Counted from the stretch's first letter, positions 1 through 52,854 are shown. The stretch: DNA of 52,854 bases from Candidatus Liptonbacteria bacterium (GCA_023244935.1 JAHFLJ010000002.1:1-52854), one strand, 5' to 3'. The notes: a model not told the origin generated them from the letters alone. Numbers and translations are program-made.

Positions 1-1
1 G

Positions 2-184
2 AAGATGGTTGCCGAGAATAGAAATTTGGAATTGGCCAAGGTAGAGAAATTGGCGGACGGATCTAGTATGCCGGGCGAAATGGCGCTTCAGAATGGCCTC
101 ATAGACGAGATTGGGAGTTACAAGCAGGTCAGTGACTATCTAAGAGAGAAAATCGGTGCAGAGCCGGCTTATTGCTGGCAGTAA
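2..184 (+). CDS. 3' fragment of an SppA-like (S49) signal-peptide peptidase gene; the 5' end lies outside the window
   Basis: The frame is open from the window edge to TAA 182-184. The translation ...KLADGSSMPGEMALQNGLIDEIGSYKQVSDYL... resembles the conserved GL(I/V)DE(I/L)G tail of S49 peptidases. It is absent from the ORF track because it has no start codon. Confidence 0.45.
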   Translation, partial: KMVAENRNLELAKVEKLADGSSMPGEMALQNGLIDEIGSYKQVSDYLREKIGAEPAYCWQ

Positions 185-202
185 AGCTTGTATAATAACT
201 TT

Positions 203-349
203 ATGGATGAAATATATGACTTAGGAAATGGCGGTGCTGGCCGGATTAACAAATTGATCTGGGTGGTTGTATTTGCTTATTTATTCCTCATGGTTCGCCT
301 TGTGGAGCTGATGGGCGTTATTCCTACTGATACTTATATTGCTTATTAA
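203..349 (+). CDS. 48-aa small membrane protein, paralogue of 5292..5438
   Basis: ATG at 203, TAA at 347-349. Translation: MDEIYDLGNGGAGRINKLIWVVVFAYLFLMVRLVELMGVIPTDTYIAY, with one hydrophobic helix. It has the same length, near-identical first 17 nt and the same LIW.V..AYL.L..RL..LM..IPTD.Y..Y skeleton as the ORF at 5292..5438. It is below the ORF-track size cutoff. Confidence 0.5.
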   Translation: MDEIYDLGNGGAGRINKLIWVVVFAYLFLMVRLVELMGVIPTDTYIAY

Positions 350-360
350 AATATAGTTAA

Positions 361-693
361 ATGATTTTAAAAATTAAAAAAGATGAGACGGGTGGAGAGA
401 AGTCTGCGGAAATAACGAAACCCAAGAGAAACTTGATGCAGTTTATTTTTTGGGTTGTGGTTGTTGCTGTTTTGATGGTAGGCGGCGCATTTAAAAATAA
501 AATTGATGATGGATTTAAATGTCCAAATGACTACGGATCTGCTGAGGAGTATCTGAATTCGGTTGCCCAGATGATAAAAACGGAAACTGATAAAAATCCG
601 GAAATTAGTTTTGACGAGTTAATGAATTTAAGGAATGAAGAGTTGGACGCGCATAAATGCGAACCATCCAAGTGGATGGATGACGGTAGTTAG
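361..693 (+). CDS. hypothetical N-terminally membrane-anchored protein (110 aa)
   Basis: ORF-track ORF with an ATG start. It has a hydrophobic segment FIFWVVVVAVLMVGGAF followed by a soluble domain with two Cys. No family was recognised. Confidence 0.5.
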   Translation: MILKIKKDETGGEKSAEITKPKRNLMQFIFWVVVVAVLMVGGAFKNKIDDGFKCPNDYGSAEEYLNSVAQMIKTETDKNPEISFDELMNLRNEELDAHKCEPSKWMDDGS

Positions 694-717
694 GTGTAAA
701 TACTTGCGTGTTGTTAT

Positions 718-790
718 AAAAAAATCGCACAGGGGTGCGATTTTGAGTTATTAAAACAGGGCAAGGGATCTTCGGAGAGTTTTGCGCTTA
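718..790. repeat. junction repeat copy A: terminator hairpin plus a degenerate relic of the 3' end of gene 6213..6977
   Basis: The hairpin aaaatcgcac-aggg-gtgcgatttt (721..744) is identical to those at 2107..2130 and 5164..5187. The downstream reverse complement still reads RKTLRRSLALF-stop, compared with the live gene end AELYLQRAFSLF-stop. Confidence 0.7.
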
Positions 791-827
791 GGACCTTGGA
801 AGGTTATTATGTTGGTAATTAAACCAC

Positions 828-2084
828 ATGAAGATAAAAGAAACTGTACGGCGGGATGGGTTGAGGATTATTAGCTGCAATATACCTACGCAGACTAGGG
901 TTTCGGTTGAAATTTCAGCCTTGGTTGGTTCGGCTTACGATCCGTCACATAAACAGGGCCTATTCCATTATTTTGAACATATGGCTTTTAAAGGCACTAA
1001 AAAGCGAACCGTGAAAGAGATTAGCGATTTTGCCAATAGAAATCTTTTAAATTTCAATGCAAGCACCTCTCGTTTGCGTACAGAATATTACGGAGTTGCG
1101 GTTTATAAAAAATTAACTGAGGCATGTGATGTTATTTCTGATATTTATGTGAATTCGAATTTTCCTACCAAAGAAATTAAAAAAGAAAAAGGTCCAGTTT
1201 TATTGGAAGCTGCGCGAAATAAAGATGGTGACAGTTACTTGTCAGATTTAACTTTGCGCGAGCTGCTTTATGCTAAAAATCCGCTTAGACAATTCAGCAC
1301 CGGAACAGAGGAAGGGATTAAAAGTATTACCAGAAATGATCTTGTCAGGGAAAAAGACAAGTGGTACGTTCCATCGAATACTATTGCGCTTGCCGTAGGG
1401 AGAGTTTCACATTCTGCATTCGTTCGGGAGATTGAAAAACGCGTTCCAATCAACGCTTCCGTTGTAAATCATCCTATTTGGGATAGTGAGTTGAACTTGT
1501 TTCCGGGAGAAGTGCGCAAAGTAATTGAGCGCAAAGACAGGAATCAGTCTACTGTTGTTATGGGTTGCAAGGTTCCTGAAAAGGTCAGCGACCGAATGGA
1601 TGTGGTTGAGGACTTTTTGTTAAGTCTATTAGTGTCAGGCTGGAGCTCTCGTCTTCGTCATGAGGTTCGAGAGAAAAGAGGATTAGCATATTCTGCAAGA
1701 GGAGGAATAACCAGAATGTATGGTTTGGGCGCGTATTTTAGTTCGTTTGTACAAACCAAGCCCGGAAAAGAAAAAATTGTGGAATCTTTGATGCGTAAGG
1801 CAATATTTACCCCGATTACAATCAAGGACAAAAAGATATTCGAAGATACGCGCGAAACTATGAATGATCATATAACCGCAGGGTTTGGAGAAAATTTGGA
1901 CAGATGGGGAGATTTGATATACGAAAAAATTGTAAAAGGCGAGTCGCTGTCCGGGATTGAAAGATATTTCAAAGAGCAACGCGCCATTGTTAATTCTTTG
2001 TCATTAAAAGAGGCCGAGAAAATGAGGAAGGAGCTGTTTAGGCCGGAAAGATTCGCGACGGTTATAATCAAACCGAAAAAATAA
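828..2084 (+). CDS. M16 (pitrilysin/insulinase) family zinc peptidase
   Basis: 418 aa. It has the inverted zinc motif HxxEH in GLFHYFEHMAFKGTKKRT and the typical two-domain M16 length. Confidence 0.85.
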   Translation: MKIKETVRRDGLRIISCNIPTQTRVSVEISALVGSAYDPSHKQGLFHYFEHMAFKGTKKRTVKEISDFANRNLLNFNASTSRLRTEYYGVAVYKKLTEACDVISDIYVNSNFPTKEIKKEKGPVLLEAARNKDGDSYLSDLTLRELLYAKNPLRQFSTGTEEGIKSITRNDLVREKDKWYVPSNTIALAVGRVSHSAFVREIEKRVPINASVVNHPIWDSELNLFPGEVRKVIERKDRNQSTVVMGCKVPEKVSDRMDVVEDFLLSLLVSGWSSRLRHEVREKRGLAYSARGGITRMYGLGAYFSSFVQTKPGKEKIVESLMRKAIFTPITIKDKKIFEDTRETMNDHITAGFGENLDRWGDLIYEKIVKGESLSGIERYFKEQRAIVNSLSLKEAEKMRKELFRPERFATVIIKPKK

Positions 2085-2101
2085 TAAGGAATAAAGGATG
2101 T

Positions 2102-2185
2102 AAAAAAAAATCGCACAGGGGTGCGATTTTTGGATTTACGGAATAACTAGAACAGGGCAAGGGCTCTTTGGAGGTACAGTTCGGC
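2102..2185. repeat. junction repeat copy B: terminator hairpin plus a relic of the 3' end of gene 6213..6977
   Basis: A-run, hairpin aaaatcgcac-aggg-gtgcgatttt (2107..2130) and T-run. The reverse complement of 2145..2185 reads AELYLQRALALF-stop. Confidence 0.75.
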
Positions 2186-2264
2186 AAGTAATTTTAGCTT
2201 GACATAATTTCGGTAATGTCCTACCTTGAGGTTAGTATAAATCTGACATGGGGGCTAGAAGACC

Positions 2265-2516
2265 ATGCCAGAAACAAAATCTCTTCTAGCAGACTGTGAG
2301 GAAAAGGCCATGGATGGAAACATCAGAAGCTGTCTCAGTGTCACCAGCCCCAACGCTGCTCCTGTCCCCGTAGTCATCAAAGCTGCGCTCTCTCGATTCA
2401 AGCGCGCCAAGATGCTCTGCGATTACAACGACGGCGGCAAGTACGGTGACGGTTACAGCGACGCAAAGTACGGCGACTACAGCGACCACGAAAAATACGG
2501 CGACTCCGGGGATTGA
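2265..2516 (+). CDS. candidate RiPP precursor peptide (83 aa) with a six-fold Tyr-x-Asp C-terminal region
   Basis: ATG 2265, TGA 2514-2516. The C-terminal 30 aa read CDYNDGGKYGDGYSDAKYGDYSDHEKYGDSGD (YND, YGD, YSD, YGD, YSD, YGD; KYGD occurs three times). The ORF is visibly GC-richer than its flanks and sits immediately upstream of a radical SAM/SPASM gene. The start codon is uncertain (Met16 and Met50 are alternatives). Confidence 0.55.
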   Translation: MPETKSLLADCEEKAMDGNIRSCLSVTSPNAAPVPVVIKAALSRFKRAKMLCDYNDGGKYGDGYSDAKYGDYSDHEKYGDSGD

Positions 2517-2522
2517 AACCGT

Positions 2523-2558
2523 GGGGCAACTACAACTAAGCTAGTTGCCCCATTTTTA
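2523..2558 (+). terminator. intrinsic terminator/attenuator between the precursor ORF and the rSAM gene
   Basis: 9-bp stem ggggcaact / agttgcccc with an 11-nt loop, followed by atttttaaa. Confidence 0.6.
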
Positions 2559-2584
2559 AATCCCAAAAGAAAGTAGGTGAGAAA

Positions 2585-3697
2585 GTGAAACCGATTACAC
2601 TTATTGTAAAGCCCGTTTCGACTGGCTGTAATTTGGCCTGCGACTATTGCTATCACGGTGAAGCTAAGAAACGTTTACAGATTCGGCGAATGGGAGACGA
2701 ACTGCTAGAAAAACTGATTTCGGAATTTAGCTTACTCGACCAGCCTAGGAGTAAGTTCCTCTGGCACGGTGGTGAACCGACGCTTGCTGGACAAGATTTT
2801 TTTGGAAAAGCCGTGTCATTGCAGAAGGATTATTTTACTGACGAAAGAGTTGCCATGAATTCAATTCAAACTAATGGCACCACAATCAACGAATCTTGGA
2901 TCAGTTTTTTCAAGATGAACAAGTTTGGCGTCGGTATTAGTTTGGATGGACCAAAAGACGTCCACGACCGACATCGCAGAGATTTCTCCGGCAACGGAAC
3001 ATTTGGAAGAGTAATATCCCGTATTTCTATGATGGCTGCTTCTGGTCTTCACGCAGGAGTTGTTTGCACGGTCACAAAGCCAGTAGTAAACGACGCTAGG
3101 CGGTTACTCCAATTTTTCGTAGAGAATGGCATGACTAAGCTTAACTTCTCTCCGGCCGCAGATCTCTGTGCGGGAGGGATGTTGGCTAAGTATTCTCTTT
3201 CTCCTGAAGAGTGGGGTTATTTTCTCCATGAGCTGTTTGACGCCTGGGTTGAGTTGGGCAATAAGGATGTTGAAATCCAACTCTTCGAAAATTTACTTCA
3301 GGTTGCATTCGGCGGAGAGGCTAAGCTCTGTACTATAAATAGGAACTGCGGCGAATTCATTTCAGTGGACGCCGATGGATTGGTTTACGTTTGTGGCAGA
3401 TTTCTTGGTAATAAGGATTTTTTGGCTGGAGATTTGAAAGATACATCACTCCAGGAAATTCTCAAGAGTTCACGCTGTGAAAAAATTGTTTCTGCGATGA
3501 CCTACCTGCCGCAGAGATGCGAAGATTGCGAAGCGCAGAAATTTTGCAATGGCGGGTGCGCATACTATCGCTTTTTGGACGGAAAACAGCGGAACGATCC
3601 GTATTTCTGTGAGTCCATGAAGGCGGCGACAATTCATATAAAGGAGTTCCTTCTTGGTTGTGGAGCCCAAGATTCAACAATCTGGGCGAAGCCATAG
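2585..3697 (+). CDS. radical SAM/SPASM-domain enzyme, anaerobic-sulfatase-maturase-like
   Basis: GTG start preceded by aggtga. CX3CX2C is present in TGCNLACDYCYHG at the extreme N-terminus, so there is no N-terminal RRE domain. GGEPTLAG, QTNGT and ISLDGPKDVHDRHRR are anSME-like. The SPASM motifs are complete: C-x9-G-x4-C (CGEFISVDADGLVYVC) and CX2CX5CX3C (CEDCEAQKFCNGGC). Confidence 0.9.
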   Translation: MKPITLIVKPVSTGCNLACDYCYHGEAKKRLQIRRMGDELLEKLISEFSLLDQPRSKFLWHGGEPTLAGQDFFGKAVSLQKDYFTDERVAMNSIQTNGTTINESWISFFKMNKFGVGISLDGPKDVHDRHRRDFSGNGTFGRVISRISMMAASGLHAGVVCTVTKPVVNDARRLLQFFVENGMTKLNFSPAADLCAGGMLAKYSLSPEEWGYFLHELFDAWVELGNKDVEIQLFENLLQVAFGGEAKLCTINRNCGEFISVDADGLVYVCGRFLGNKDFLAGDLKDTSLQEILKSSRCEKIVSAMTYLPQRCEDCEAQKFCNGGCAYYRFLDGKQRNDPYFCESMKAATIHIKEFLLGCGAQDSTIWAKP

Positions 3698-3704
3698 TAA
3701 ATAG

Positions 3705-3736
3705 GCGAACTGTCAAAACAGTTCGCTTTTCTTTTT
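3705..3736 (+). terminator. intrinsic terminator after the rSAM gene
   Basis: 9-bp stem gcgaactgt / acagttcgc with a 4-nt loop, followed by ttttcttttt. Confidence 0.7.
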
Positions 3737-3759
3737 AAAATATGCTATTTATTTAAACA

Positions 3760-4278
3760 ATGACTCAAACAGAAGCGACGCCAAAAATTAAGGATATTGT
3801 TTCTAGTTTTAAGACCCAAGGATTGGATGGGGTATTCGAGGCGCTGGAATGGATACATAAAAATCTTAAAAGAGATTTGGATGAAGAATACAAAAGCGAA
3901 CATTTTAGGAAGCGAACTGCAACTGAAATTATAGAAAGCGGAAAGCTTACCGGATGTACAGACTATGCTTTGGTGTTTTTGGCACTGGTTCGAGCAATCG
4001 GAATCGAGGCAAAATACGTAGAGGCCATAGAAACTGATTGGCTGAAAGAAGGCGGAGAACATATAAAAGGACATATTTTTGCGGAAGTAAAAATTGGAGA
4101 TAGCTGGTATATCGTTGACCCTCAAGCCGCAGTCATTAAGGCTTGGTATGGCAGGCGTTATGAGATATATGCGAGAGGCGAGGATTCTTGGGATGTTGGT
4201 ATTAAAAGCTTCGAAGATATAAAGGAAAAATTTAGGATCTACAGAGAAGAATATCTTAGCAATCAAAAAGCCCCCTAG
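3760..4278 (+). CDS. transglutaminase-like cysteine peptidase-fold protein
   Basis: 172 aa. The Cys-His-Asp core signature is present: GKLTGCTDYALVFLALVRAIGIEAKYV (Cys), GHIFAEVKI (His) and WYIVDPQ (Asp). Confidence 0.75.
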   Translation: MTQTEATPKIKDIVSSFKTQGLDGVFEALEWIHKNLKRDLDEEYKSEHFRKRTATEIIESGKLTGCTDYALVFLALVRAIGIEAKYVEAIETDWLKEGGEHIKGHIFAEVKIGDSWYIVDPQAAVIKAWYGRRYEIYARGEDSWDVGIKSFEDIKEKFRIYREEYLSNQKAP

Positions 4279-4349
4279 TGCGATTTTTCGATTGTTATTT
4301 TGAATATAAACTATTAATTATTTCATAATATATTTGTAATAATATTTAT

Positions 4350-5138
4350 ATGGACTATTTACTTTTACTTTCAGACGAAGAATATCAGGATATCTTCGAA
4401 AAAGGACACGACTCACCTTATACCTTTGAGGTTCTTGGTAATGGCAAGGCAATATTTTACTTTGGGGTAGAGCACAGCAGAGATCCTAGAAATCTACAGT
4501 GGAGTAAGCTGGAATCTTACTGGAATAAATTTGTTAGCGAGACAAACGGAAAACGAATTGTATTTTTGGAAGGACCCGGAGGGTTTAAAGTTGATGGACT
4601 CGCGAGGAATGAAATTATCGAAAAATTTGGAGAATCTGGATTGTTGATGTCTTTCGCCGGATTGGAAAATATTTCTTTTATTTGGCCAAACTTGTCGATG
4701 CAGGAGGAGGCTAAACAGTTAGAGAATGGTTTTGATTCTGATTTGGTGAAATATTATATTTTTGCGCGAAGTGTCGGGGCGTGGCTAAAGATTGGGAATA
4801 TGGGTACTTTTGATGAGGTTATTAGTAAAGCAATTGCATCTACCGCAAAGTGTATTTCTGGAGCGTCTTCAGAGTTTAGTTTTTACGATAGAATTCACGA
4901 GCGAATATTTGGGAATAAGATTACTGTTTCCGAACAGGAGAATTTAATGAAAGCTGCGGTGCCGATTTATCATGATTCGGTTATTAATGATATCGCGCGC
5001 GCTTCAAGCCGACTACGCAATGAACACATTGTTTCAGAAGTAGAAAAATATTGGAATGATGGATATAGCGTATTTATGTTGTTCGGATCCGCTCATGCTG
5101 TAATTCAAGAGAAAGCATTAAAAAGCTTAGGTAAGTAA
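4350..5138 (+). CDS. hypothetical protein (262 aa)
   Basis: Long ATG-initiated ORF followed by junction repeat copy C. No family was recognised with confidence. Confidence 0.55.
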   Translation: MDYLLLLSDEEYQDIFEKGHDSPYTFEVLGNGKAIFYFGVEHSRDPRNLQWSKLESYWNKFVSETNGKRIVFLEGPGGFKVDGLARNEIIEKFGESGLLMSFAGLENISFIWPNLSMQEEAKQLENGFDSDLVKYYIFARSVGAWLKIGNMGTFDEVISKAIASTAKCISGASSEFSFYDRIHERIFGNKITVSEQENLMKAAVPIYHDSVINDIARASSRLRNEHIVSEVEKYWNDGYSVFMLFGSAHAVIQEKALKSLGK

Positions 5139-5158
5139 ATTTGATGTCAGCGGAGAAA

Positions 5159-5258
5159 TAAAAAAAATCGCACAGGGGTGCGATTTTTGGATTTTCAGAA
5201 CAATCAGAACAAGGCAAGGGCTCTTTGGAGGTAGAGTTCGGCCATTCGCCAGTTGATT
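5159..5258. repeat. junction repeat copy C: terminator hairpin plus a 17-codon relic of the 3' end of gene 6213..6977
   Basis: Identical hairpin at 5164..5187. The reverse complement of 5205..5258 reads INWRMAELYLQRALALF-stop, compared with the live end IDWRMAELYLQRAFSLF-stop. Confidence 0.8.
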
Positions 5259-5291
5259 GAGAATCTTTGAGAATAGATTAATATTAGGAAT

Positions 5292-5438
5292 ATGGATGAA
5301 ATATGTGAAGAAAAAAGGGGTAGGTTTGATAGAATGGACGCATTAATTTGGATAGTTACATATGCTTATTTACTTCTTATATTTCGTCTTCTTCAGTTGA
5401 TGAGCATTATACCGACCGATAGGTATTTTGTTTATTAA
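5292..5438 (+). CDS. 48-aa small membrane protein, paralogue of 203..349
   Basis: ATG 5292, TAA 5436-5438. Translation: MDEICEEKRGRFDRMDALIWIVTYAYLLLIFRLLQLMSIIPTDRYFVY. It has the same architecture and position (first gene of its cassette) as 203..349. Confidence 0.5.
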   Translation: MDEICEEKRGRFDRMDALIWIVTYAYLLLIFRLLQLMSIIPTDRYFVY

Positions 5439-5483
5439 TAAATTGCAGAAGCAAGCAGTAGCTACTCTAAATAAATAACAATT

Positions 5484-6149
5484 ATGAAAATCGAATTTAT
5501 CGAAGATGTTAGCCGAGATGTAGAAAACTGGCAAAAGTCACTGACAAGTCGCAGTAACTATGTTTCGGATCCATCAAAACGGATACCGGAGGATGTCGAT
5601 AAAGAGAGGCTGGGTGACGCCGAGTATTTAAAACAATATCTATTCGATAATTTTTATCAGACGGGAAAAGTTGCTTCATTTAAGAATTGGTTAATCGCAA
5701 ATACTAATTCCGCGGAGATTCAGGGTGATATTGAGGATTTAATGCAGAGGAAGTTTAAGACTGCAGATATTACAGCATATATAACTGTTTTTGGGCTCGG
5801 GCGTTACGAACCTGCAAACAACGTCTTTTTTGTAATTTTCACACGGCTTGAGGAAAGGTATAAAATAAAAATTTCCAATATTTATCATGAGCTGATGCAT
5901 TTTTTGGTTCACGAATATTTTTGGGAAGAGTGTAAAGCGTCCGGGTTGTCGGAAGCGCAGACTCACGACTTGAAAGAATCTTTGACTGTTCTGTTGAATC
6001 CAATTTTAGAAAAGAGAGGATTGCCCTTGGACGAGGGTTATCCCAAACATCAGGAACTTCGAGCTAAGTTGAAAGCTCTATGGGAAGAGAAGAACTGGAA
6101 GTTTGAGGATTTTTTGAAAAAGGTTTTAGAATTAAAGTTGGTTAGTTAA
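5484..6149 (+). CDS. hypothetical protein with an HExxH zinc-metallopeptidase-like motif
   Basis: 221 aa. It carries a single HELMH in NIYHELMHFLVHEYF. No further family assignment is possible by eye. Confidence 0.5.
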   Translation: MKIEFIEDVSRDVENWQKSLTSRSNYVSDPSKRIPEDVDKERLGDAEYLKQYLFDNFYQTGKVASFKNWLIANTNSAEIQGDIEDLMQRKFKTADITAYITVFGLGRYEPANNVFFVIFTRLEERYKIKISNIYHELMHFLVHEYFWEECKASGLSEAQTHDLKESLTVLLNPILEKRGLPLDEGYPKHQELRAKLKALWEEKNWKFEDFLKKVLELKLVS

Positions 6150-6172
6150 ATTACGGTTGGAGTTCCGGATTT

Positions 6173-6206
6173 AAAAAAATTGCCCCGCGTGTTGCGGGGC
6201 GATTTT
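6173..6206. terminator. bidirectional intrinsic terminator shared by 5484..6149 (+) and 6213..6977 (-); junction repeat copy D
   Basis: A-run, 7-bp GC stem gccccgc / gcggggc with a 5-nt loop, and T-run. It occupies the same frame (aaaaat...cgattttgga) as copies A-C but has a different stem sequence. Confidence 0.75.
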
Positions 6207-6212
6207 GGATTA

Positions 6213-6977
6213 CTAAAACAAGGAAAAGGCTCTTTGGAGGTAGAGTTCGGCCATTCGCCAGTCGATTGGGTCGAGGGCGTTTCCGCTCGGGCGGAGTTTG
6301 CTTTGGGCGTCGATGCTCAGATTCGGAAATTCCTCGAGGAGTGGCCTCAGAAGGCGAAGCGTGTCCGGTCCCAGTCCACCGGCAACGGCGATTCCAACTT
6401 CCGGAAGATATCTGGCGATTGCTCTCGCAAAGGGGAGTATCGCTTTGGCTTTTAGTTCGAGACCTCTTCCCATGCTCATGTCGAGAAGAACGTAATCGAT
6501 CGCGTCGCCGTATTCAAGAAGTCTTTTTGTGAATGCGACAGGATTATTGCCTACTAAATCCATAGCGTCCGAGTTCCCCTGAACAATAACCTGAATCCAC
6601 GGATAGCGGTTGCGGAATGACGCGATAATTTTCGGGTCGGGCCAAATCATGTCTAGCTGAAGTGCGTGCATGTTCGGACCGCCTAGCGAAGCGGCAAATT
6701 CGATGTTCTCCGCAACCTTAATGCCGTCATAGTCGGCATAGTGCAAGGTATTGAAGGCGAGGGGATGAGAAATAAAAATATCTTTGATGATTTCTTTCGG
6801 CGGGAAAGCAGTAGTCCATTTTGTTGGAATGCCGTTCAGAGTTTTGTAGCTCATCATCACGCCGACCATCAAGCGTCTGCCAATTTCTTGAGATCCGCAT
6901 TCACCGAAGAATTTGAGCATTCGCTCGGCTTGTTCGGGGTTCACGAAGTCGGTGATTCCGATGTAGGGAGTTTTCAC
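6213..6977 (-). CDS. TIM-barrel protein, phosphoribosylanthranilate-isomerase (TrpF)-like fold
   Basis: 254 aa. GTG start with a GGAGGG Shine-Dalgarno sequence. YIGITDF near the N-terminus and GIAVAGGLGPDT...SIDAQSKLR near the C-terminus resemble PRAI-type barrels. The function is not certain. Confidence 0.45.
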   Translation of the reverse strand: MKTPYIGITDFVNPEQAERMLKFFGECGSQEIGRRLMVGVMMSYKTLNGIPTKWTTAFPPKEIIKDIFISHPLAFNTLHYADYDGIKVAENIEFAASLGGPNMHALQLDMIWPDPKIIASFRNRYPWIQVIVQGNSDAMDLVGNNPVAFTKRLLEYGDAIDYVLLDMSMGRGLELKAKAILPFARAIARYLPEVGIAVAGGLGPDTLRLLRPLLEEFPNLSIDAQSKLRPSGNALDPIDWRMAELYLQRAFSLF

Positions 6978-7022
6978 GGTGCCCTCCGTTTTTTAATTTT
7001 CTATGGATAGATTAGCATATTG

Positions 7023-7484
7023 TTACGAAATCACAAATTTGTGCGAATATACGAATGATAAAAAGGACATTTGCTGTAATGGGAGAGTTGTTAGGCGAAT
7101 AGTTTTTTCTTCGTCGGTTATTATTTTTGGTTCGGGATTTTCGCCGGCAGCTTTTTTCTCGGCATGGGCGTTTACTTCATCTCTGAATTTAAGAAATTTT
7201 TCCCCGCCGGAATATATCCAGAAACTGCCATGACCATCCATTAATGATAGGCGAGTGCTTGGGTCGGTATTTCTATCAGAATAGAATTCGTTTAATAGGG
7301 ACTCCACTTCGGCTTTAATTTTTTGTGGAGCGTGAATTGAGACCCAGGGACCGGGGAAGCCGTGGTCGACACGGCCTTCGCAGGAACCGGAAGTGGGGAT
7401 TTCGAGACGATTTAATTCGGAAACTAGAGGCTTAATTTTTTCGTCTATTCCACCCCATTCATCTTTTATGTTGAGGTCTGTCAT
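7023..7484 (-). CDS. hypothetical protein (153 aa)
   Basis: ATG-initiated ORF co-directional with 6213..6977 and 45 nt upstream of it. No family was recognised. Confidence 0.5.
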   Translation of the reverse strand: MTDLNIKDEWGGIDEKIKPLVSELNRLEIPTSGSCEGRVDHGFPGPWVSIHAPQKIKAEVESLLNEFYSDRNTDPSTRLSLMDGHGSFWIYSGGEKFLKFRDEVNAHAEKKAAGENPEPKIITDEEKTIRLTTLPLQQMSFLSFVYSHKFVIS

Positions 7485-7511
7485 TTAGGTATTCTAACAC
7501 AGCGAATGCAG

Positions 7512-7583
7512 TGCTCCCACCCTCCTTCGCGCGAGGCTTCGGATGGGCAGGCAAGAATATCGGACCTTGATCAATTTCCGCCA
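7512..7583 (-). pseudogene. 3'-half remnant of a tRNA-Lys-like gene interrupted by a 32-nt REP-like insert
   Basis: The reverse complement reads GGAAATTGATCAAGGTCCGATATTCTTG-[32 nt]-TGGGAGCA. Its 18 nt AATTGATCAAGGTCCGAT and the acceptor 3' strand TGGGAGCA are identical to the intact tRNA at 7646..7716. The insert at 7520..7551 resembles the REP unit at 7963..7990. Confidence 0.6.
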
Positions 7584-7600
7584 AAGGCGGACAGGGCTTA

Positions 7601-7770
7601 CGCTCGGCAACGAATTAAAATGAAAATGAATTGTTTTGCACAGTGTGCTCCCACAAGGAATCGGACCTTGATCAATTGCTTAAAAGGCAACTGCTTTACC
7701 ACTAAGCTATGGGAGCACACTAAGCACAACGCAAACCATTCATTTTCATTTTTAATGAGCGAACCGAGCG
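7601..7770. repeat. imperfect ~40-nt inverted repeat arms (7601..7640 and 7731..7770) bracketing the intact tRNA-Lys
   Basis: Arm 1 is cgctcggcaacgaattaaaatgaaaatgaattgttttgca. The reverse complement of arm 2 is cgctcggttcgctcattaaaaatgaaaatgaatggtttgc. They share cgctcgg and an attaaaa(a)tgaaaatgaat core, aligned by eye. Confidence 0.7.
7646..7716 (-). tRNA. tRNA-Lys (anticodon UUU), no encoded CCA
   Basis: The reverse complement is GCTCCCA-TA-GCTT-AGTGGTA-AAGC-A-GTTGC-CTTTTAA-GCAAT-TGAT-CAAGG-TCCGATT-CCTTG-TGGGAGC-A. This gives a 7-bp acceptor, a 4-bp D stem, a 5-bp anticodon stem and a 5-bp T stem. The core AGCAGTTG.CTTTTAA.CAATTG is typical of tRNA-Lys. The T-loop has C instead of the usual U at position 55. 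Confidence 0.85.
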
Positions 7771-7790
7771 ATGAGGCAAAGCCTCATAAA

Positions 7791-7820
7791 GTAACTGCTT
7801 TACCACTAAGCTATGGGAGC
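7791..7820 (-). pseudogene. 5'-half remnant of a tRNA-Lys-like gene
   Basis: The reverse complement GCTCCCATAGCTTAGTGGTAAAGCAGTTAC matches the 5' 30 nt of the intact tRNA at 29 of 30 positions. Homology stops at the anticodon loop. Confidence 0.65.
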
Positions 7821-7990: not shown

Positions 7991-8007
7991 ATAGGGGAGG
8001 GTGAAGC

Positions 8008-15052: not shown

Positions 15053-15662
15053 AGAATATACGACGGACTCGATGTTCAAGCGAGCGGTTTCCGCCGGGCT
15101 TTTGGAATTTAAATTTATCGATCTTAGAAAATTCGGCGAAGGCGTTCATAAAAAAATTGATGAACGTCCTTTCGGTGGTGGGCCAGGAATGGTTTTGCAA
15201 TTTGACCCGATTTGGCAAGCTCTTAAATCCGTAAAAACAAAGGCGAAAACCAAGAATGAGAAAGTAATTCTTTTTTCACTTCGCGGACGAAAACTTACCG
15301 GAAAAATTGCGGAAGATTTTTCCAAACTTAAGAAAATTACTTTGGTCTGTGGAAGGTATGAAGGAGTGGATGAACGAGTAGCGGAAAACTTGGTAGATGA
15401 AGAGATTTCGATAGGAGACTATGTTCTAAGCGGTGGTGAATTGCCCGCTTTAGTGCTTTCCGAGGCCGTGGCGAGGTTTTTACCGGGGTTCTTGGGTAAA
15501 CAGGAGTCGCTGGAGAGTATTCGCGGTTCTTACCCCGCATACAGCCGACCGGAGAAAATTATTAATTATAAAAAAGGAAAGGTTTTGAAGGTCCCTGAAG
15601 TTCTTCTTTCGGGAGACCATAAAAAAATAGCCGAATGGCGGCTCAAAAATTCTTCTTTATAA
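14997..15662 (+). CDS. trmD: tRNA (guanine37-N1)-methyltransferase
   Basis: 221 aa. Motifs: IVTAFPG, GRYEGVDERV and SIGDYVLSGGELPALVLSEAV. It overlaps the upstream ATPase gene by 56 nt. Confidence 0.9.
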   Translation: MKKKKLTIQIVTAFPGLIKEYTTDSMFKRAVSAGLLEFKFIDLRKFGEGVHKKIDERPFGGGPGMVLQFDPIWQALKSVKTKAKTKNEKVILFSLRGRKLTGKIAEDFSKLKKITLVCGRYEGVDERVAENLVDEEISIGDYVLSGGELPALVLSEAVARFLPGFLGKQESLESIRGSYPAYSRPEKIINYKKGKVLKVPEVLLSGDHKKIAEWRLKNSSL

Positions 15663-17020
15663 ATTTCGGGTTTATTGTGGGTGTTTTAATCAGCGGTTTT
15701 TTTGACTCATATTACAAAGTAATCTTTTGGCTGGCGTTTATGATATTTTTGTCAAGCGCTGTTTTTTTACGAAACTATTTATATTTATTTTCATTATTTT
15801 TTAGCGGGGTTTTTGTGGCTATTTTTTATTTCGGAATGCGAGAGGGGATTGTTCTAAACGGATATCCTAAGCTTACTGGTGGAGATTTTGAAGTGATGTC
15901 GGTTTCGGAAACTATTACGACCGATAAAAGTCGGAGAATTGTTGCCGAGCTTAGAGGCGAATATCGCGGAGAGGTTTTGGTTTTCTACCCGAGTGAGGAT
16001 ATTTTCAAATATGGAGATGTCCTGAAAGTTACGGGTGATTTTGAGTCGGCAGAAGTCAAAGGAGGTTCGCCGGTAATTTTTGCGGAAAGAATTGAATATG
16101 TCGGAAATGAAGGAAGTGAAATTAATAAGCTTTTGTTCGGGGTTAAAGATAAATTTGTTTCGGTTTTAACTAAAAATCTTAGTCCAAACGCCGGCGCGCT
16201 CGCTTCCGGACTTTTGTTCGGAGAGAAAGCCAAATTTAGTTCGGAATTTAAGGAGGCGATGAAGCGGAGCGGAACGACACACATTGTCGCTCTTTCCGGA
16301 TACAATATTTCAATTTTGGTTGGAGCTTTGGGTCTAGTCGTGGCCGTTTTTAGTAGGCGGATTAGAATTTTTTTGTATTTTTTTGTTATTATTATTTTTA
16401 CCCTAATGGTTGGGGGAGATCCGTCAATTGTTAGGGCAGCTATAATGGGCGGAGTTTTTTTACTTTCGAAGGAGTTGGGAAGAAACATTACTCCGGCTTA
16501 TGCTCTAAGTTTTGCCGGAGCGCTTATGTTGTGGTGGAATCCGTTGGTTATATATTCGATTGGATTTCAATTATCGTTTTTGAGCTTTATGGGAATAGTC
16601 TATATCGCGCCATCACTTACAAGTATCTTCAAACTGAAGGGCGGACTTATCTCAAAGCTCACCGTGGAAACCGCATCGGCGCAACTCGCAGTTTTGCCGT
16701 TAATTGTTAATTACTTCGGCGGGTTTTCGGTTGTATCGCTTATTTCAAATATTTTTATACTCGGAACAATTCCAATTTCAATGTTTTTTGCATTTCTGCT
16801 TTTGGTTTTTAATTTTATATTGCCGTTCCTTTCATTTTTCATAGTATGGATATGTGAGATTGTTTTGGGGTACCAGATATTTATAATTAATTTATTTTCA
16901 AAACTTTATACACCGTCGGGCAGTTACTTTAGAAACGGAATATTTACGGCAGTTTATGTAGTTTTACTTTTGGGGATTATAATATTTTATAAAGACGACA
17001 ATCCTAATGAAAACAAGTAA
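15635..17020 (+). CDS. comEC: ComEC/Rec2 competence channel domain protein (membrane part)
   Basis: 461 aa and polytopic. Motifs: FKEAMKRSGTTHIVALSGYNISIL and GGDPSIVRAAIMGG. There is no fused metallo-beta-lactamase domain. Confidence 0.8.
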   Translation: MAAQKFFFINFGFIVGVLISGFFDSYYKVIFWLAFMIFLSSAVFLRNYLYLFSLFFSGVFVAIFYFGMREGIVLNGYPKLTGGDFEVMSVSETITTDKSRRIVAELRGEYRGEVLVFYPSEDIFKYGDVLKVTGDFESAEVKGGSPVIFAERIEYVGNEGSEINKLLFGVKDKFVSVLTKNLSPNAGALASGLLFGEKAKFSSEFKEAMKRSGTTHIVALSGYNISILVGALGLVVAVFSRRIRIFLYFFVIIIFTLMVGGDPSIVRAAIMGGVFLLSKELGRNITPAYALSFAGALMLWWNPLVIYSIGFQLSFLSFMGIVYIAPSLTSIFKLKGGLISKLTVETASAQLAVLPLIVNYFGGFSVVSLISNIFILGTIPISMFFAFLLLVFNFILPFLSFFIVWICEIVLGYQIFIINLFSKLYTPSGSYFRNGIFTAVYVVLLLGIIIFYKDDNPNENK

Positions 17021-17864
17021 ATTGATTTCGTTTATTGCTATTCTTCTGGCGCTAAATATTTATTTGTGGGTTTTCGCGCTGGGCGAGAAATTGTCGATTA
17101 TTCCCGGATTTTATTTTCTCAATGTGGGGCAAGGGGACTCGGAGATGGTTGTTTTGCGGGGTGGGGCAACGATTCTTACCGACGCCGGACCGAACTATGA
17201 AGTAGTTTCGGAAATGCAGAAGATTTTGGGATTATCCGCGAATTACATTGATATTGGAATAATTACTCATGCTCAAGCCGATCACTTTGGCGGATATTTG
17301 GATTTAATCAAAAAATATTCGTTTGGAGCGGTGCTTTGGAATGGGGCGGAGCCAAGCGGTTCCGGTAGCTGGCAAAATTTGAAAGAAAAACTTGCGGAAT
17401 TAAATATTCCGCTGGTAGTTACGGGCGCGGGAACGATTATTTCACAGGGAGAAGATAATATTAAAATATTGTCGCCGGATTATAAATTTATCGAGGCGAA
17501 GGATTTGAACGATACCGGAATTGTGGAAAAAATTACCATAGGTGAAAGGACGGCGTTATTCACGGCAGACATCAGTAAAAAAGTGGAAACATATTTATTA
17601 CAAATATATAGCGAGGAGCTTAAAGCCGACATTCTAAAGGTTCCGCATCACGGATCGAAGACTTCGGCGGGGAGCGCGTTTATCTCGGCGGTAGATCCTT
17701 CGATTTCAGTGATAGAAGTCGGCCTTAAAAATAGATACGGCCATCCGACAGCGGAGGCGTTGGCATTACTTTCGTCAATATCGTCCAAGATTTTACGGAC
17801 TGACCTTGATGGGGGCTTGTTTTTACAGCCGGCGGATGGGGGATTTAAGGTTTTTACAGAATAG
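17007..17864 (+). CDS. ComEC-type metallo-beta-lactamase domain protein encoded as a separate ORF
   Basis: 285 aa. It has an N-terminal TM/signal. Motifs: FYFLNVGQGDSEMV, IITHAQADHFGG and KVPHHGSKTS. It overlaps comEC by 14 nt. Confidence 0.8.
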   Translation: MKTSKLISFIAILLALNIYLWVFALGEKLSIIPGFYFLNVGQGDSEMVVLRGGATILTDAGPNYEVVSEMQKILGLSANYIDIGIITHAQADHFGGYLDLIKKYSFGAVLWNGAEPSGSGSWQNLKEKLAELNIPLVVTGAGTIISQGEDNIKILSPDYKFIEAKDLNDTGIVEKITIGERTALFTADISKKVETYLLQIYSEELKADILKVPHHGSKTSAGSAFISAVDPSISVIEVGLKNRYGHPTAEALALLSSISSKILRTDLDGGLFLQPADGGFKVFTE

Positions 17865-49147: not shown

Positions 49148-52100
49148 TTACGGCGCTTCGCCTCCTCCACCATCAGCTCCTCCTCCACTAACAGTGCCTC
49201 CTCCGGGATTTCCACTGTCGCCACCATCAATTTCCCCTCCAAGGAGTGTTCCGGTTACTGGTGGAGCACCTTCGAATCCATCGTCGCCACCACCGCCAAA
49301 ATATCTGAACGGCTTGGCATGATTAACTCCGGTTACAAATCCGGTTTTGGAATCCGTAGTGGTTATATTTTCTGTGTGGAGTAAGAGGTTTAGGTAATCG
49401 GCATAACCAATATTTATAACGTTGAGTTGAAGTAATACTTGGCTTGTTGTCGCTACGGTCCAATTATTTCCAAAGAATATACTACCGGTGCCGTTTGTAA
49501 TAGTGGTTGTTCCATTGGATCCTAGTTGCGAATCTTCGATATCAACGATTCCATTTGCGTTTGAATCAAGATAAAGTTTTGCGTTTGTAATGTCGGCGCT
49601 TTCAAAACCACTTTGAGCTGAAATTGTTATTGTGGTAGCAGTTATGCTTATGCTTCCACTGCTTGAAGTTAATTTGTATCGGAATAGCGTAGAGGATGTA
49701 ACTTGTGTTTCGTTTATATCGAATTGGTTTGTTTGTTGCCCAACAATGTGATCGCTTAAGGTTAAAGTTTTAACTCCGGAGACCGGTGGCACATACGAGG
49801 TCGCGCCCGTCCACTGGAAAGTTGCCATCATAAAATCGATGTTCGGACTGAAATTGGTTGACGTGGGTGCGTCAACTGTAGTGCGGATGTTCATACTCAT
49901 TCGGTTGTTGACTGTATCCACGTAGTCTTCGGGATTGGTTGTGAACCCGTGCAAGCCGCTCACACCGACACCTCCGATTGTAACGGCATCTTGGTAACTC
50001 ATAGCCAGAGTTTGAGCTGCTCCCCAAGCTGTCCAACCACCTAAGGCTCCGGAAAGTCCGGAATAGTCACGGATACCAACTTGCATTGTGCTGGATGCAC
50101 CGGGTGCAAAACGGGCGGCGTAGTAAAGGCTGGTGACTGCGGCACCTGACGGAACAGTAACTCCGAAATTGAAGTTCGCGGCGACAGCTTCTCCGATGGT
50201 CGCATTTGCATCGGTGTTTAGCGGATAGTAGTCGTTTCCTGTTCCCATATTGGCAGATTCATCTTCGGCAAGAAGATTCCAACTGTTTGTATCTCCGGTT
50301 GTATTAATATTCCAAGTAGAGGTCGGATAACTGTTTCCGAAAGTTGGCGTGGAAGTGGAAAGTAATCCGGTTGTAGCATTTCTTTTTTCAATTATCCATT
50401 TAGTACCGGAAGGCGTGGATGATCCGTAACCGACGGCGTAGAGATTACCCCCGTCAACAGCCAGGGCCATAAACTGGTCTTCGCTTCCTTCTTCGGCGGC
50501 AACGTGTCCGTCGCCGTCAAATGTGGTAGTGGCGACACCGGTTGTAATATCGTATTTGTCGATACGCAGACGACCGACAGTTCCGATAGTTAACGAGTCT
50601 ACTCCGGCGAGATATACACCGGTTGCGTCAGTTCTCACTGATTGCCAAATTTCTCCGGTTGCAGCAGTATGATTCATTTCAACGATTCCGTCGGTATCAA
50701 AAGCAGTGACGAGTGCGCCGGTTGAGGTCGCACGTTTTTCAAGTCTTGCCCTACCTGTTCCACCATTCAAAGTTGAAGAAGCGTAACCGGCGAAGTAAAG
50801 AAAATTTCCATCGTTGGTCATGCTGTAAATTTCATCGACGAGAGTTGTCGGGTTACTTTCAAGAACACCGCTCGTTGCGAAAGTGCCGACGAAGGCACCG
50901 GTTGTAGCGTCACGTTTTTCCACGCGCCAACCTGTGTTTAACATTGTGGTTGAGGAGGCCGAACCGGCGACATACAAATCGTTACCGATAACATTGACCG
51001 TATATGGAGTATCAAGACCGGTACCGGGATTGCTGGAAGTTGTACCATTCACACCAAAAGCGGCAACTAGCGCACCGGTTGAAGTTGCACGTTTTTCAAT
51101 TCTCCAAGAGCTATTTGCGGCACTCGAAGAAAAGTCGGTTCCTACTATATATAGATAGTTGCCGTCGGTAGTCATTCCGGTGGCTCGATCCAGTCTGACG
51201 CTCGGATTGCTGCTGGTTGCTCCACTGACACCAAAATTCGAATCCAAAAGACCGGTAGTCGCATTTCTTTTTTCCAGATACCAAATGCTGTCATTGGTAC
51301 TACTTGCATAACCGACGGTAAATACAGAATCTCCGGCGAGAACTACTGAGTTGATTTCATCGTTGGTGATCGAAGGGTCGGAAATGGCAACACCGGAAGA
51401 TGCGAAAGCTGTGACTAGTGCACCATCGCTAAGATTTCTTTTTTCAAGACGCCATCTTCTATCTCCCCCGTTTGAGCCAAAACCACCGACATACATGTAT
51501 GTTCCATCTTCGGCAATATACGCAGGGCGGTCTTCACCAACTGATCCGTTAATCACCAATCTACCTGCAGTTGAAGTACCGAAAGAAACATCGGTTGAAG
51601 TCGGCGTGCTTCCGAGAGTCAAATATATGGAATCGATTACCAGCGAAGTTGTGCTGGTCGAAAGGCCGTAGTCACGAATCCAGATTTCACTAGAAGAAGA
51701 AATGTAATCACCGATAGTTGCAGAGTTTTTGGCAAAATAGTTCATAGGGCTTGCAGCAAGACAATCAATTGGTTGAGAAATATTTTCCCAAGTGCTTCCG
51801 GTGAAGTTGCGGATAGCAAATTGATACTGAAGATTTTGAGTTGCGGCTGAACAGTAGGCTTCGGTCGCTACAAGGATAGTGTTCATTCCGTTGTACGCTT
51901 TCACATTATCAAAAGTCAGATAGAAGTCAGAAGTAGTTGCTGCGGTTCCCGGAACGGAAAGTAAAATACCATCACCGGCAGTGTTGGACATTATTCCTCC
52001 TACTACGTTTCCGAATATTTGCGTGTTTGGATATATTCCAGTTACCGTACCTCCAGAATTTTTATTGAATCCGGCGGCGCTATATATCGGATCAACTATT

Positions 52101-52854
52101 GCGTTTACACGAAGGTAATCGACGGAAAGATTTCCTAGTGGAGTACTGGAAGCAAAATATCTCATTCTCATTTGGCCGTTGTTCACAAAATTAGAGAGAG
52201 GCGTGGCTATGGGGATGCCGCTCGTTGAATTTGTTGTCCAATATCCGTCGTAGATAGACCATTGCAAAACATCTCCTGCGCCTGCCGTGTCGTTATAGAA
52301 GTAAGGAGTGTTGTTAACAGTTCTGGAGTTCAAATAGCGCCAACCACCTCCGGTACACCTGGCGTCCGCTGCATGATCTACCGAAGAAGTGGATACAAAG
52401 TCACAAATTTCCAGGAGCAAGTTTGTAGTCGTAGTTGCGACAACGATATCAGTTTCTACAATCAGTTTATTGGCGCCATTCAATTGAAAGTTATCAAAAA
52501 CAAGATTCATATCTATACCGCTTGCCGTGGTGGAGGCGCGCCAATGGAAAGAGTCGTCGGCAAGGGTTCCCTTCCAGGAACCGACGTTCATTCCGGTTGT
52601 GGCAGCTGCTCCTTCGGAGCGAATAGGCATTTCATTACCGGTTACAAGTTGGCCCCCGGTGGGAGTGAATTGGTAGGTTTCCGATGGATGGCTTCCGTCT
52701 TCCGTCCACTGTATCGTCGCCATCATAAAGTCTATGTTCGGACTGAAATTGGTTGACGTGGGTGCGTCAACTGTAGTGCGGATGTTCATACTCATTCGGT
52801 TGTTGACTGTATCCACGTAGTCTTCGGGATTGGTTGTGAACCCGTGCAAGCCGC
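49148..52854 (-). CDS. giant surface protein (>1,233 aa, N-terminus outside the window) with a seven-unit delta-60-type repeat region and a Gly-rich C-terminus
   Basis: The frame is open to the window edge; the ORF-track Met is a TTG inside GLHGFTT. There are seven ~55-aa repeats ending W(R/Y/I)(L/I/V)EKR..(T/S)(T/D)G.L...F...G (for example WYLEKRNATTGLLDSNFGVSG). A ~170-aa module ending LHGFTTNPEDYVDTVNNRMSMNIRTTVDAPTSTNFSPNIDFMMAT.QWT is duplicated. Confidence 0.7.
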   Translation of the reverse strand, partial: GLHGFTTNPEDYVDTVNNRMSMNIRTTVDAPTSTNFSPNIDFMMATIQWTEDGSHPSETYQFTPTGGQLVTGNEMPIRSEGAAATTGMNVGSWKGTLADDSFHWRASTTASGIDMNLVFDNFQLNGANKLIVETDIVVATTTTNLLLEICDFVSTSSVDHAADARCTGGGWRYLNSRTVNNTPYFYNDTAGAGDVLQWSIYDGYWTTNSTSGIPIATPLSNFVNNGQMRMRYFASSTPLGNLSVDYLRVNAIVDPIYSAAGFNKNSGGTVTGIYPNTQIFGNVVGGIMSNTAGDGILLSVPGTAATTSDFYLTFDNVKAYNGMNTILVATEAYCSAATQNLQYQFAIRNFTGSTWENISQPIDCLAASPMNYFAKNSATIGDYISSSSEIWIRDYGLSTSTTSLVIDSIYLTLGSTPTSTDVSFGTSTAGRLVINGSVGEDRPAYIAEDGTYMYVGGFGSNGGDRRWRLEKRNLSDGALVTAFASSGVAISDPSITNDEINSVVLAGDSVFTVGYASSTNDSIWYLEKRNATTGLLDSNFGVSGATSSNPSVRLDRATGMTTDGNYLYIVGTDFSSSAANSSWRIEKRATSTGALVAAFGVNGTTSSNPGTGLDTPYTVNVIGNDLYVAGSASSTTMLNTGWRVEKRDATTGAFVGTFATSGVLESNPTTLVDEIYSMTNDGNFLYFAGYASSTLNGGTGRARLEKRATSTGALVTAFDTDGIVEMNHTAATGEIWQSVRTDATGVYLAGVDSLTIGTVGRLRIDKYDITTGVATTTFDGDGHVAAEEGSEDQFMALAVDGGNLYAVGYGSSTPSGTKWIIEKRNATTGLLSTSTPTFGNSYPTSTWNINTTGDTNSWNLLAEDESANMGTGNDYYPLNTDANATIGEAVAANFNFGVTVPSGAAVTSLYYAARFAPGASSTMQVGIRDYSGLSGALGGWTAWGAAQTLAMSYQDAVTIGGVGVSGLHGFTTNPEDYVDTVNNRMSMNIRTTVDAPTSTNFSPNIDFMMATFQWTGATSYVPPVSGVKTLTLSDHIVGQQTNQFDINETQVTSSTLFRYKLTSSSGSISITATTITISAQSGFESADITNAKLYLDSNANGIVDIEDSQLGSNGTTTITNGTGSIFFGNNWTVATTSQVLLQLNVINIGYADYLNLLLHTENITTTDSKTGFVTGVNHAKPFRYFGGGGDDGFEGAPPVTGTLLGGEIDGGDSGNPGGGTVSGGGADGGGGEAP

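Follow-up and report, generated by a model that had tools for sequence, protein, structure and literature searches.

Different genes occupying the space between the same conserved flanks, and exchanged by transformation and homologous recombination, are known as minimal mobile elements, a concept from Neisseria. In bacteria of the candidate phyla radiation (CPR), whose genomes are tiny and contain few recognisable mobile elements, the gain and shuffling of accessory genes are poorly understood. Here, we describe a locus from an uncultured member of the Patescibacteria, Candidatus Liptonbacteria bacterium, within a window of 52,854 nt (the whole stretch of DNA that was analysed). The interval between an sppA-like gene and a minus-strand gene for a TIM-barrel protein (the TIM gene) contains small sets of plus-strand genes separated by copies of a terminator hairpin, each followed by a relic of the 3′ end of the TIM gene. 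Our preferred reading of this locus is that of an additive genomic island in a recombinase-free variant.

Among described systems, tandem islands made by integrases at the 3′ end of a tRNA, tmRNA or protein gene share this layout, as do cis-mobilizable elements that have accreted. In Dehalococcoides, the tandem islands at ssrA are bounded by repeats and some of them lack an integrase (PMC3146451), and in tycheposons newer elements push older ones inward, leaving partial tRNAs (bioRxiv 10.1101/2020.12.28.424599). Our locus likewise consists of small, strain-variable units bounded by serial same-orientation direct repeats of the 3′ end of a target gene (copies A, B and C, described below, and the live end), with the intact gene at one end. 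In integrase-made islands, however, the core repeat is constant (for example 20 bp), insertion always occurs at one position and many of the units contain an integrase module, whereas here there is no constant core and no recombinase was seen in the window or beside the one relic found in a relative (L003). The locus also resembles the products of Campbell-type insertion-duplication and of homology-facilitated illegitimate recombination (HFIR), which combines one homologous end with one illegitimate end, the joins usually having 3-10 bp of microhomology (PMC3240628). In Escherichia coli, when a circle bearing a truncated homologous segment recombined by a single crossover, 109-950 bp of the target became duplicated (PMC3240628). 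The geometry of relic, cassette, terminator and complete gene is the same here, and a homologous segment, the terminator plus 12-17 codons, is found on both sides of each cassette. Those, however, are single laboratory events, whereas the products at our locus appear to be fixed in nature, three deep and common to diverged lineages.

Minimal mobile elements and replacement islands provide a further likeness, with flanks that are each conserved on their own side, unrelated cargo, no mobility genes, recombination tracts in a flank gene and a competence gene. Yet replacement leaves no relics, whereas here the versions are added in series, each with a flank stump. Finally, integron arrays also consist of small same-orientation cassettes separated by a hairpin-forming repeat, but they rely on IntI and on attC sites (imperfect palindromes of 57-141 nt with R″/R′ cores), while the hairpins here have perfect 10-bp stems, 4-nt loops and A/T runs, and are accompanied by a relic. 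Cassettes here hold one to three genes, again in contrast to integrons. No GTTRRRY cores were seen by eye at the cassette boundaries, and no IntI was found in the window.

On balance, we lean towards the reading that successive versions of a strain-variable slot have been stacked by non-site-specific insertion-duplication together with homologous recombination anchored in the gene end, with no recombinase involved, and we hold this to be slightly likelier right than wrong. An earlier, sequence-only reading of the window had seen an insertion hot spot here and offered two explanations: insertion as at tRNA-type att sites, or shuffling of cassettes with the gene end and its terminator as portable homology. 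The second is the better supported. Against a site-specific mechanism, the breakpoints vary, no integrase lies in the window or beside the relic found in a related contig, and the TIM gene is mosaic from its interior into the downstream DNA.

The repeats themselves carry this argument. Four same-orientation copies of an A-run, a hairpin and a T-run had been described, each with a copy of the gene end, and all of the main elements were recovered: each hairpin is followed, in register, by sequence resembling the 3′ terminus of the live gene (6213..6977, minus strand). They are listed below with the live end (copy D); L numbers denote contigs or loci of relatives and P numbers homologous proteins.

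716..744, no strand: hairpin A, with an A-run, a 10-bp stem AATCGCAC../..GTGCGATT, the loop AGGG and a T-run; bidirectional and terminator-like.
751..~787, minus strand: relic A of the TIM gene end, reading ..RRSLALF-stop (TAA); short-spacer class, with a 3-nt deletion and ~80% identity to D over 30 nt.
2101..2131, no strand: hairpin B, stem and loop as in A (pattern search, terminator scan, folding).
2147..2185, minus strand: relic B, the last 12 codons and a TAG stop, reading AELYLQRALALF-stop; long-spacer class, with a synonymous GTACAG as in the live gene of L002.
4278..4293, no strand: hairpin vestige, right arm and T-run (GTGCGATTTTTCGATT), the left arm being overwritten by the end of an open reading frame (ORF).
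5158..5188, no strand: hairpin C, stem and loop as in A and B (pattern search, terminator scan, folding).
5204..5259, minus strand: relic C, the last 17-18 codons and a TGA stop (SINWRMAELYLQRALALF), reading (S)INWRMAELYLQRALALF-stop; long-spacer class, 94% identity to D over 52 nt.
6173..6205, no strand: hairpin D, with an A-run, the stem GCCCCGC/GCGGGGC and a T-run; live bidirectional terminator, of the same type as the live terminator of L003.
6213..6977, minus strand: live TIM gene, encoding a 254-aa member of a conserved protein family; the right anchor, whose last helix (residues 240-253) is the duplicated part.

A 35-nt relic core recurs at 2151-2185, 5208-5242 and, in the live gene, 6217-6251 with at most two mismatches; none of 100 shuffles contained such a match. 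Copy A is the weakest, yet its local alignment to D, C or B was reached by none of 2000 shuffles. Relic length and identity had both been thought to fall with distance from the live gene; identity does so, but relic A (~12-13 codons with the 3-nt deletion) is not shorter than relic B. The breakpoints differ, at codon -17 in C, codon -12 in B and about codon -12/-13, with a deletion, in A, so that the repeat unit of 80-105 nt includes the whole terminator and has three different inner ends. The sequences to the right of the three junctions have no clear motif in common; the A-B pair is weakly similar (its score was reached by 77 of 2000 shuffles) and the other pairs are not. Scanning the whole window for repeats gave no other gene-end relic of this kind, except for a small case at a tRNA-Lys gene (see below), and the exact relic pattern had no match in viral contigs. 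A half copy of the hairpin, reported at 4279..4289, is real in the sense that a 16-nt match with one mismatch occupies 4278-4293, but no similarity to the gene end lies behind it, which rules it out as a fifth relic.

Promoter-like matches were observed at two of the joins. At relic C a -35 element, TTGAGA, is formed across the join (window 5257-5285), with a spacing of 16 nt to TAATAT, and L003 has conserved it; at relic B (2181-2208) the arrangement is TCGGCA-16-CATAAT with an upstream TG. Both matches are weak, and the region's total is not above chance.

Our second line of evidence concerns the hairpin. Its 20-nt core AATCGCACAGGGGTGCGATT is present in exactly three copies in the window (723, 2109 and 5166), none of 100 shuffles contained a match, and no further copies were found with up to three mismatches allowed. 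The full string (aaaatcgcac-aggg-gtgcgatttt) is identical in A, B and C, and copy D has another stem at the same position, both as first read. All of the hairpins fold strongly (z-scores of -2.6 to -4.0 for the copies of the core) and have A- and T-runs; B, C and D are called terminator-like on the minus strand by the scan, and the hairpins score as terminators on both strands. They have the form of bidirectional intrinsic terminators: a stem-loop that contains G+C, with an A-run on one side and a T-run on the other, lying between convergent genes. Directly after the live TIM gene, and given in window orientation, L002 (81% aa identity) has AAAAAAATCGCAC-CTAT-GTGCGATTTTT and L004 (73.6%) has AAAAAATCGCAC-ATGG-GTGCGATTTT; L003 (77%) has a GCCCCGC-type stem after its live gene and L006 (67%) a third stem type. 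Because close relatives have the same stem right after the live gene, the hairpin is the TIM gene's own bidirectional terminator, and its structure, kept in relatives with differing stems, is conserved while the stem sequence is replaced. An Rfam scan of positions 1-8400 returned only tRNA above threshold, and weak 'Leu_leader' matches on relics B and C merely reflect the terminator hairpin.

The protein family tells which of the two, gene or repeat, came first. The TIM gene product has 1111 homologues at E ≤ 0.001, the few annotated ones being labelled Patescibacteria or Paceibacterota, and no Pfam or NCBIfam model matches it. Its AlphaFold model (pLDDT 94.9, pTM 0.92) is a (β/α)8 barrel; all of the top Foldseek matches are TIM barrels, with the best coverage for phosphoribosylanthranilate isomerase (PRAI) and MJ1099, and its sequence profile weakly matches ribulose-phosphate 3-epimerase (E 0.014). 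The C-terminus ..DPIDWxMAxxYLxxAxxxF is conserved in all of the 120 homologues listed. Since this C-terminal helix is conserved throughout the family, the gene end is ancestral and the repeat copies are relics of it. The same conservation rules out a miniature inverted-repeat transposable element (MITE) that donated codons to the TIM gene.

One might still suppose that the hairpin is a generic dispersed repeat, a module of the repetitive extragenic palindrome (REP) or MITE type or a reusable terminator found genome-wide, which by chance fused with the TIM gene or gave codons to it. The stem AAAATCGCAC....GTGCGATTTT is indeed simple and terminator-like, and occurs in 74 unrelated metagenome stretches. 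Yet the gene end lies beside the hairpin in only two of these, both with a TIM orthologue (L045 and L077, from the L004 population), all three window copies lie in this interval and always with a relic, and the codons are ancestral to a family of >1000 members. The other metagenome stretches belong to unrelated organisms whose plain stem is similar, so they are uninformative about the genome of the window. Nor does the hairpin with its relic follow many unrelated genes within the 52.8-kb window, a pattern that the sequence-only reading had named as the sign of a generic terminator repeat. We regard this explanation as very unlikely and largely refuted.

Beyond the close relatives, neighbourhoods of the TIM gene tell little about synteny: a scan of a genome collection with the TIM protein gave one 41% relative, of no use for this purpose, and the distant homologues L089, L090 and L092 (56-63%) and the viral-collection loci L095 and L096 (40%) have unrelated neighbourhoods. 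In two of these, genes of the homing-endonuclease-like GIY-YIG/T5orf172 type adjoin the TIM homologue (L096 2829-5589; L089 2724-2990); no comparable gene is found in the window. Such neighbours could hint at endonuclease-driven co-conversion near the TIM gene in other lineages.

The relics are not copies of one sequence. We aligned nine gene ends, live and relic, and found that the spacer separating the stop codon from the terminator T-run falls into two classes. The short class comprises A, D, and the live end and relic of L003; the long class, with an extra 9-nt unit, comprises B, C and the live ends of L002 and L004. A synonymous GTACAG is common to B and the live L002 gene, whereas C has GTAGAG like other alleles. 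P0002 and P0003, the nearest two homologues, end in ALALF in their live form, while the live AFSLF of the window is unique among the 120 homologues. The relics thus stem from different functional alleles, as the sequence-only reading had suspected: ALALF is live in P0002 and P0003, the variant of B in L002, and both spacer classes exist in live genes.

The TIM gene itself is a recombination mosaic with respect to its closest relative. Between the window and L002, the first 328 aligned nt are identical (198 upstream and 130 of the TIM gene) and a further run of 125 nt is identical, whereas the 3′ 60% of the gene has 67-76% identity and leads into unrelated downstream DNA. The longest identical run was reached by none of 5000 permutations, and mosaic patterns were present in all pairs of the TIM gene that were compared.

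These observations bear on a purely local history, in which the terminator and gene end were repeatedly duplicated in tandem and the copies then diverged or were lost, without DNA from other strains. Tandem duplication yields exactly one novel junction of the kind seen, a small ORF of the locus is duplicated (see below), and the identity of hairpins A, B and C extends to the AGGG loop, where relatives have other sequences (for example CTAT and ATGG). However, the spacer order short, long, long, short would be hard to obtain by serial copying of one evolving end, as it needs the gain and then the precise loss of the 9-nt unit. The synonymous variant of the live L002 gene is in B but not in C, the cassette genes are unrelated with GC contents spanning 33% to 50%, and the TIM gene itself contains imported tracts. 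We consider a wholly local origin to be quite unlikely.

The genes lying between the copies are as follows.

1..184, plus strand: 3′ end of the sppA-like (Peptidase_S49) gene; the gene continues in L001, and its product matches PF01343; left anchor.
203..349, plus strand: mini-ORF #1, 48 aa, one predicted membrane helix; after sppA in the window and in L082/L083; left anchor.
361..693, plus strand: 110-aa ORF (slot version 1), no family match; a GNAT acetyltransferase holds this position in L082/L083.
828..2084, plus strand: M16 peptidase (slot version 2), PF00675 and PF05193.
2265..2516, plus strand: 83-aa precursor-like ORF with KYGD repeats (slot version 3), from ORF calling.
2585..3697, plus strand: radical SAM/SPASM peptide-maturase-like enzyme (Pfam/NCBIfam).
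3760..4278, plus strand: transglutaminase-like protein (Pfam).
4350..5138, plus strand: 262-aa ORF, no family match.
5260..5291, plus strand: junction and linker from relic C to mini-ORF #2 (..GATTG, then from the join AGAATCTTTGAGAATAGATTAATATTAGGAAT); same junction in L003.
5292..5438, plus strand: mini-ORF #2, paralogue of #1 (73% nt identity); start of a second copy of the whole slot.
5484..6149, plus strand: HExxH protein (slot version 4), 87% nt identity to the HExxH gene of L082.

Five cassettes had been counted between the sppA-like and TIM genes. The copies do delimit cassettes, whose genes are mutually unrelated, but the first mini-ORF (203..349) belongs with sppA to a conserved left flank, as in L082/L083, and is not cassette material. 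The rest of the window is housekeeping chromosome (SecDF, TrmD, FtsW, MurG, GltX, MreB, RRF and others) and also encodes ComEC (15635..17864), a VirD4-like ATPase and a pilin-like protein.

Positions 1-7220 are 100% identical to L001, a contig of an independent ENA assembly, so the arrangement is not confined to one assembly. This makes it extremely unlikely that strain variants of the slot were artificially concatenated through the shared repeat. Although L083, a related strain with different slot content, was recovered from the sample that gave L001, the two assemblies do not differ at any base of the 7220 nt. The repeats are also short (30 nt identical, 83 nt at 92%) and each relic is unique, so that, reasoning from these lengths, reads must span the junctions. 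Moreover, a junction of the relic C type is found in five independent contigs from other samples.

Comparison with relatives points to conserved flanks around a variable slot. On the left side, L082 and L083 both have the order sppA, mini-ORF, GNAT, 63-aa ORF and HExxH, and the sppA/mini-ORF part of the window is 85% identical to them at the nucleotide level. On the right side, each of the four relative lineages compared has its own content downstream of the TIM gene: a 433-aa radical SAM enzyme abuts the TIM gene in L002, a mini-ORF followed by an M16 peptidase in L003; beyond the terminator, L004 has a 112-aa ORF, a PIF1 helicase, a Y1 transposase, a 121-aa ORF and M16, and L006 a NADAR protein. 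The window M16 has 80% aa identity to that of L004 and 47% to the TIM-abutting M16 of L003. From the L082/L083 order and these TIM contexts, sppA with the mini-ORF appears to be the conserved left flank and the TIM gene the conserved right flank, each being separately conserved with differing cargo beside it; the comparison covers the flanks one at a time. The five-cassette order is thus not common to related genomes, and the proposal of an insertion hot spot is borne out by the differing content beside both flanks and by the separate relic of L003. A smaller difference lies within the slot: the 63-aa ORF of L082 (1285-1560), bordered by two ATGAAAAT octamers, is missing from the window, where at 5457-5491 its upstream region is fused directly to the HExxH gene. 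This is a microhomology-mediated insertion or deletion, and shows that such events happen in the lineage.

L003 has the most informative junction. In window orientation, it reads PIF1-like gene, 311-aa ORF, hairpin AATCGCAC-ATGG, relic (SIDWRMAELYLQRALQKF-stop), linker, mini-ORF, M16 peptidase and GCCCCGC hairpin, followed by the TIM gene on the opposite strand. Its join (..GATTG, then AGAATCTT..) and the 29-nt linker correspond to those at copy C, and the block of hairpin, relic, linker and mini-ORF is present in four further contigs from other assemblies. Between the window and L003, identity over the 336 nt of this block is 77.7%, close to the 78.8% of the TIM gene in these two genomes, and in the relic part alone it is 94% (manual count on the alignment). 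The stop-proximal part of each relic fits the allele type of its own genome, QKF with a short spacer in L003 and ALALF with a long spacer in the window. These patterns suggest that the relics have been refreshed by recombination. Mini-ORF #2 follows relic C directly, which shows that here, at least, a TIM end was joined to the point where a further copy or version of the whole slot begins; this order is predicted if the interval from the left flank to TIM codon -17 was duplicated or stacked. Only four distinct sequences of the mini-ORF family were found among 5.8 billion protein clusters.

We propose the following course of events for insertion-duplication and homologous recombination at the gene end. 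The stretch from sppA/mini-ORF to the TIM gene would be a strain-variable slot, whose natural right end is the bidirectional terminator shared with the TIM gene. Four versions of it would stand head to tail: the 110-aa ORF; the M16 peptidase; a trio resembling genes for a ribosomally synthesized and post-translationally modified peptide (RiPP), with the 262-aa ORF; and mini-ORF #2 with the HExxH protein. Each of the three joins would have fallen inside the last 12-17 codons of a TIM allele, so that each older version keeps a terminator and a TIM stump, and only the version nearest the TIM gene would be attached to a complete gene. We infer that the joins were illegitimate events of the insertion-duplication type; candidate forms are the single-crossover integration of a circularised fragment, HFIR, or unequal exchange between two versions of the interval. 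Later, RecA-type homologous recombination with DNA of related strains would move, replace and refresh the slot contents, with homology arms provided by the mini-ORF, the TIM gene and the stumps of terminator plus relic. The DNA probably enters through the ComEC competence apparatus encoded in the window, and no dedicated recombinase would be needed. The terminator of each stump would stay useful to the cassette upstream, which may be why the stems are intact while relic A decays.

The search for mobility genes agrees with this proposal. The absence of a recombinase from the window, already remarked on in the sequence-only reading, holds: in Pfam scans that covered every ORF of 100 aa or more in the window, neither an integrase nor a transposase was found. 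No integrase was found beside the L003 relic or in the relatives' intervals, where the sole gene of mobility type is the Y1 transposase of L004, a locus without a relic. PADLOC found no defence system, its sole match being a weak, viperin-like one on the radical SAM domain.

Several points nevertheless weigh against the insertion-duplication reading. None of the relatives' contigs spans the whole sppA-to-TIM interval, and neither a donor nor an empty-site sequence came to light for any of the junctions; the homologues of the HExxH protein in L093 and L094 are not adjacent to a TIM gene, so that searching their contexts yielded no donor of the live end. The recombinase search covered the window, and a recombinase acting in trans from elsewhere in the genome is thus compatible with the data. 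Junction C is identical in two genomes whose relic alleles differ and resemble those of their hosts, and the inserts of the window and L003 have the same left end (linker and mini-ORF) and the same right end (GCCCCGC hairpin) around different cargo, a combination that a family of site-specific elements with conserved ends would also give. The identity of hairpins A, B and C, loop included, fits a local origin as well as import from conspecifics.

The serious rival is therefore site-specific accretion, in which integrase-less cassettes with a mimic of the TIM end and terminator as attachment site are inserted by a recombinase encoded elsewhere, newcomers pushing older ones away. The same-orientation repeats of the gene 3′ end, the newest-looking end beside the live gene, the shared junction C and ends, and the look-alikes in Dehalococcoides (PMC3146451) and among the tycheposons (bioRxiv 10.1101/2020.12.28.424599) all speak for it. 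We nonetheless judge it unlikely, as the breakpoints vary between codons -17, -12 and about -12/-13, the junctions lack a clear common motif on their right, and neither the 52.8 kb nor the relatives' variable regions contain an integrase, the L004 transposase being the one exception. In addition, the supposed element end, the mini-ORF, is the native neighbour of sppA in L082/L083, without a relic, and the cassettes measure just 0.5-3 kb. A bolder form of the idea is that Patescibacteria possess an unrecognised cassette platform, in which a trans-acting recombinase uses the codons of the last TIM helix and the terminator as its site and serially captures peptidase and RiPP cassettes of 0.5-3 kb. 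The linker/mini-ORF left end and the GCCCCGC-hairpin right end would then mark one element family, and the platform would be integron-like in function and unrelated to integrons. We hold this to be decidedly unlikely.

Under the favoured reading of stacking by insertion-duplication and homologous recombination, the locus is a readable fossil record of gene gain beside a conserved gene, with a dated stump for each step, recombination tracts in the anchor gene and no recombinase in sight. If this is general, recombinase-free additive islands could be recognised bioinformatically by terminators with gene-end stumps, and the stumps could help to order acquisition events in metagenome-assembled genomes. 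Judging by the cargo (M16 peptidase, radical-SAM maturase with a repeat-rich precursor, HExxH protein), peptide-based functions appear to vary from strain to strain.

Some features of this cargo were observed in passing. In the RiPP-like trio (2265-4278), the 83-aa ORF ends in four KYGD repeats (GGKYGDGYSDAKYGDYSDHEKYGDSGD), and the best NCBIfam matches of the radical SAM/SPASM enzyme are the anaerobic sulfatase, dynobactin, darobactin and cyclophane maturases, all below cut-offs. The HExxH protein (5484-6149) belongs to a family of ~59 with no Pfam domain recorded for any listed member; its homologues adjoin a gene for a small Cys-rich peptide (L093 1-320) or a radical SAM gene (L094 811-2121), neighbours that suggest a peptide-processing role for the family.

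Close to the TIM gene, tRNA-Lys(UUU) (7646-7716, minus strand) is flanked by partial copies of itself (7510-7822). Its 5′ half recurs at 7783-7820 (38 nt, 89%) and an exact 18-nt part of its 3′ half at 7559-7576, a fragment that a 9-nt match to the acceptor end near 7510 may extend; 20-nt inverted repeats (7617-7636, 7733-7752) bracket the tRNA. In L004 a single tRNA is contiguous with the flank, so the window has a small insertion-duplication at this tRNA too.

Elsewhere in the window, a 33-nt hairpin-containing repeat (GAATATGGATTCCCGCCTTCGCGGGAATGACAA, 91%) is present at 7875-7907 and 32408-32440, and an AT-rich motif of the AACTAATCAC type occurs at five sites in two short stretches (21742-21917, 26531-26976). 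Finally, a 1233-aa ORF at 49148..52849, without a Pfam match, has internal repeats (49807-49959 and 52702-52854; 50698-51103).

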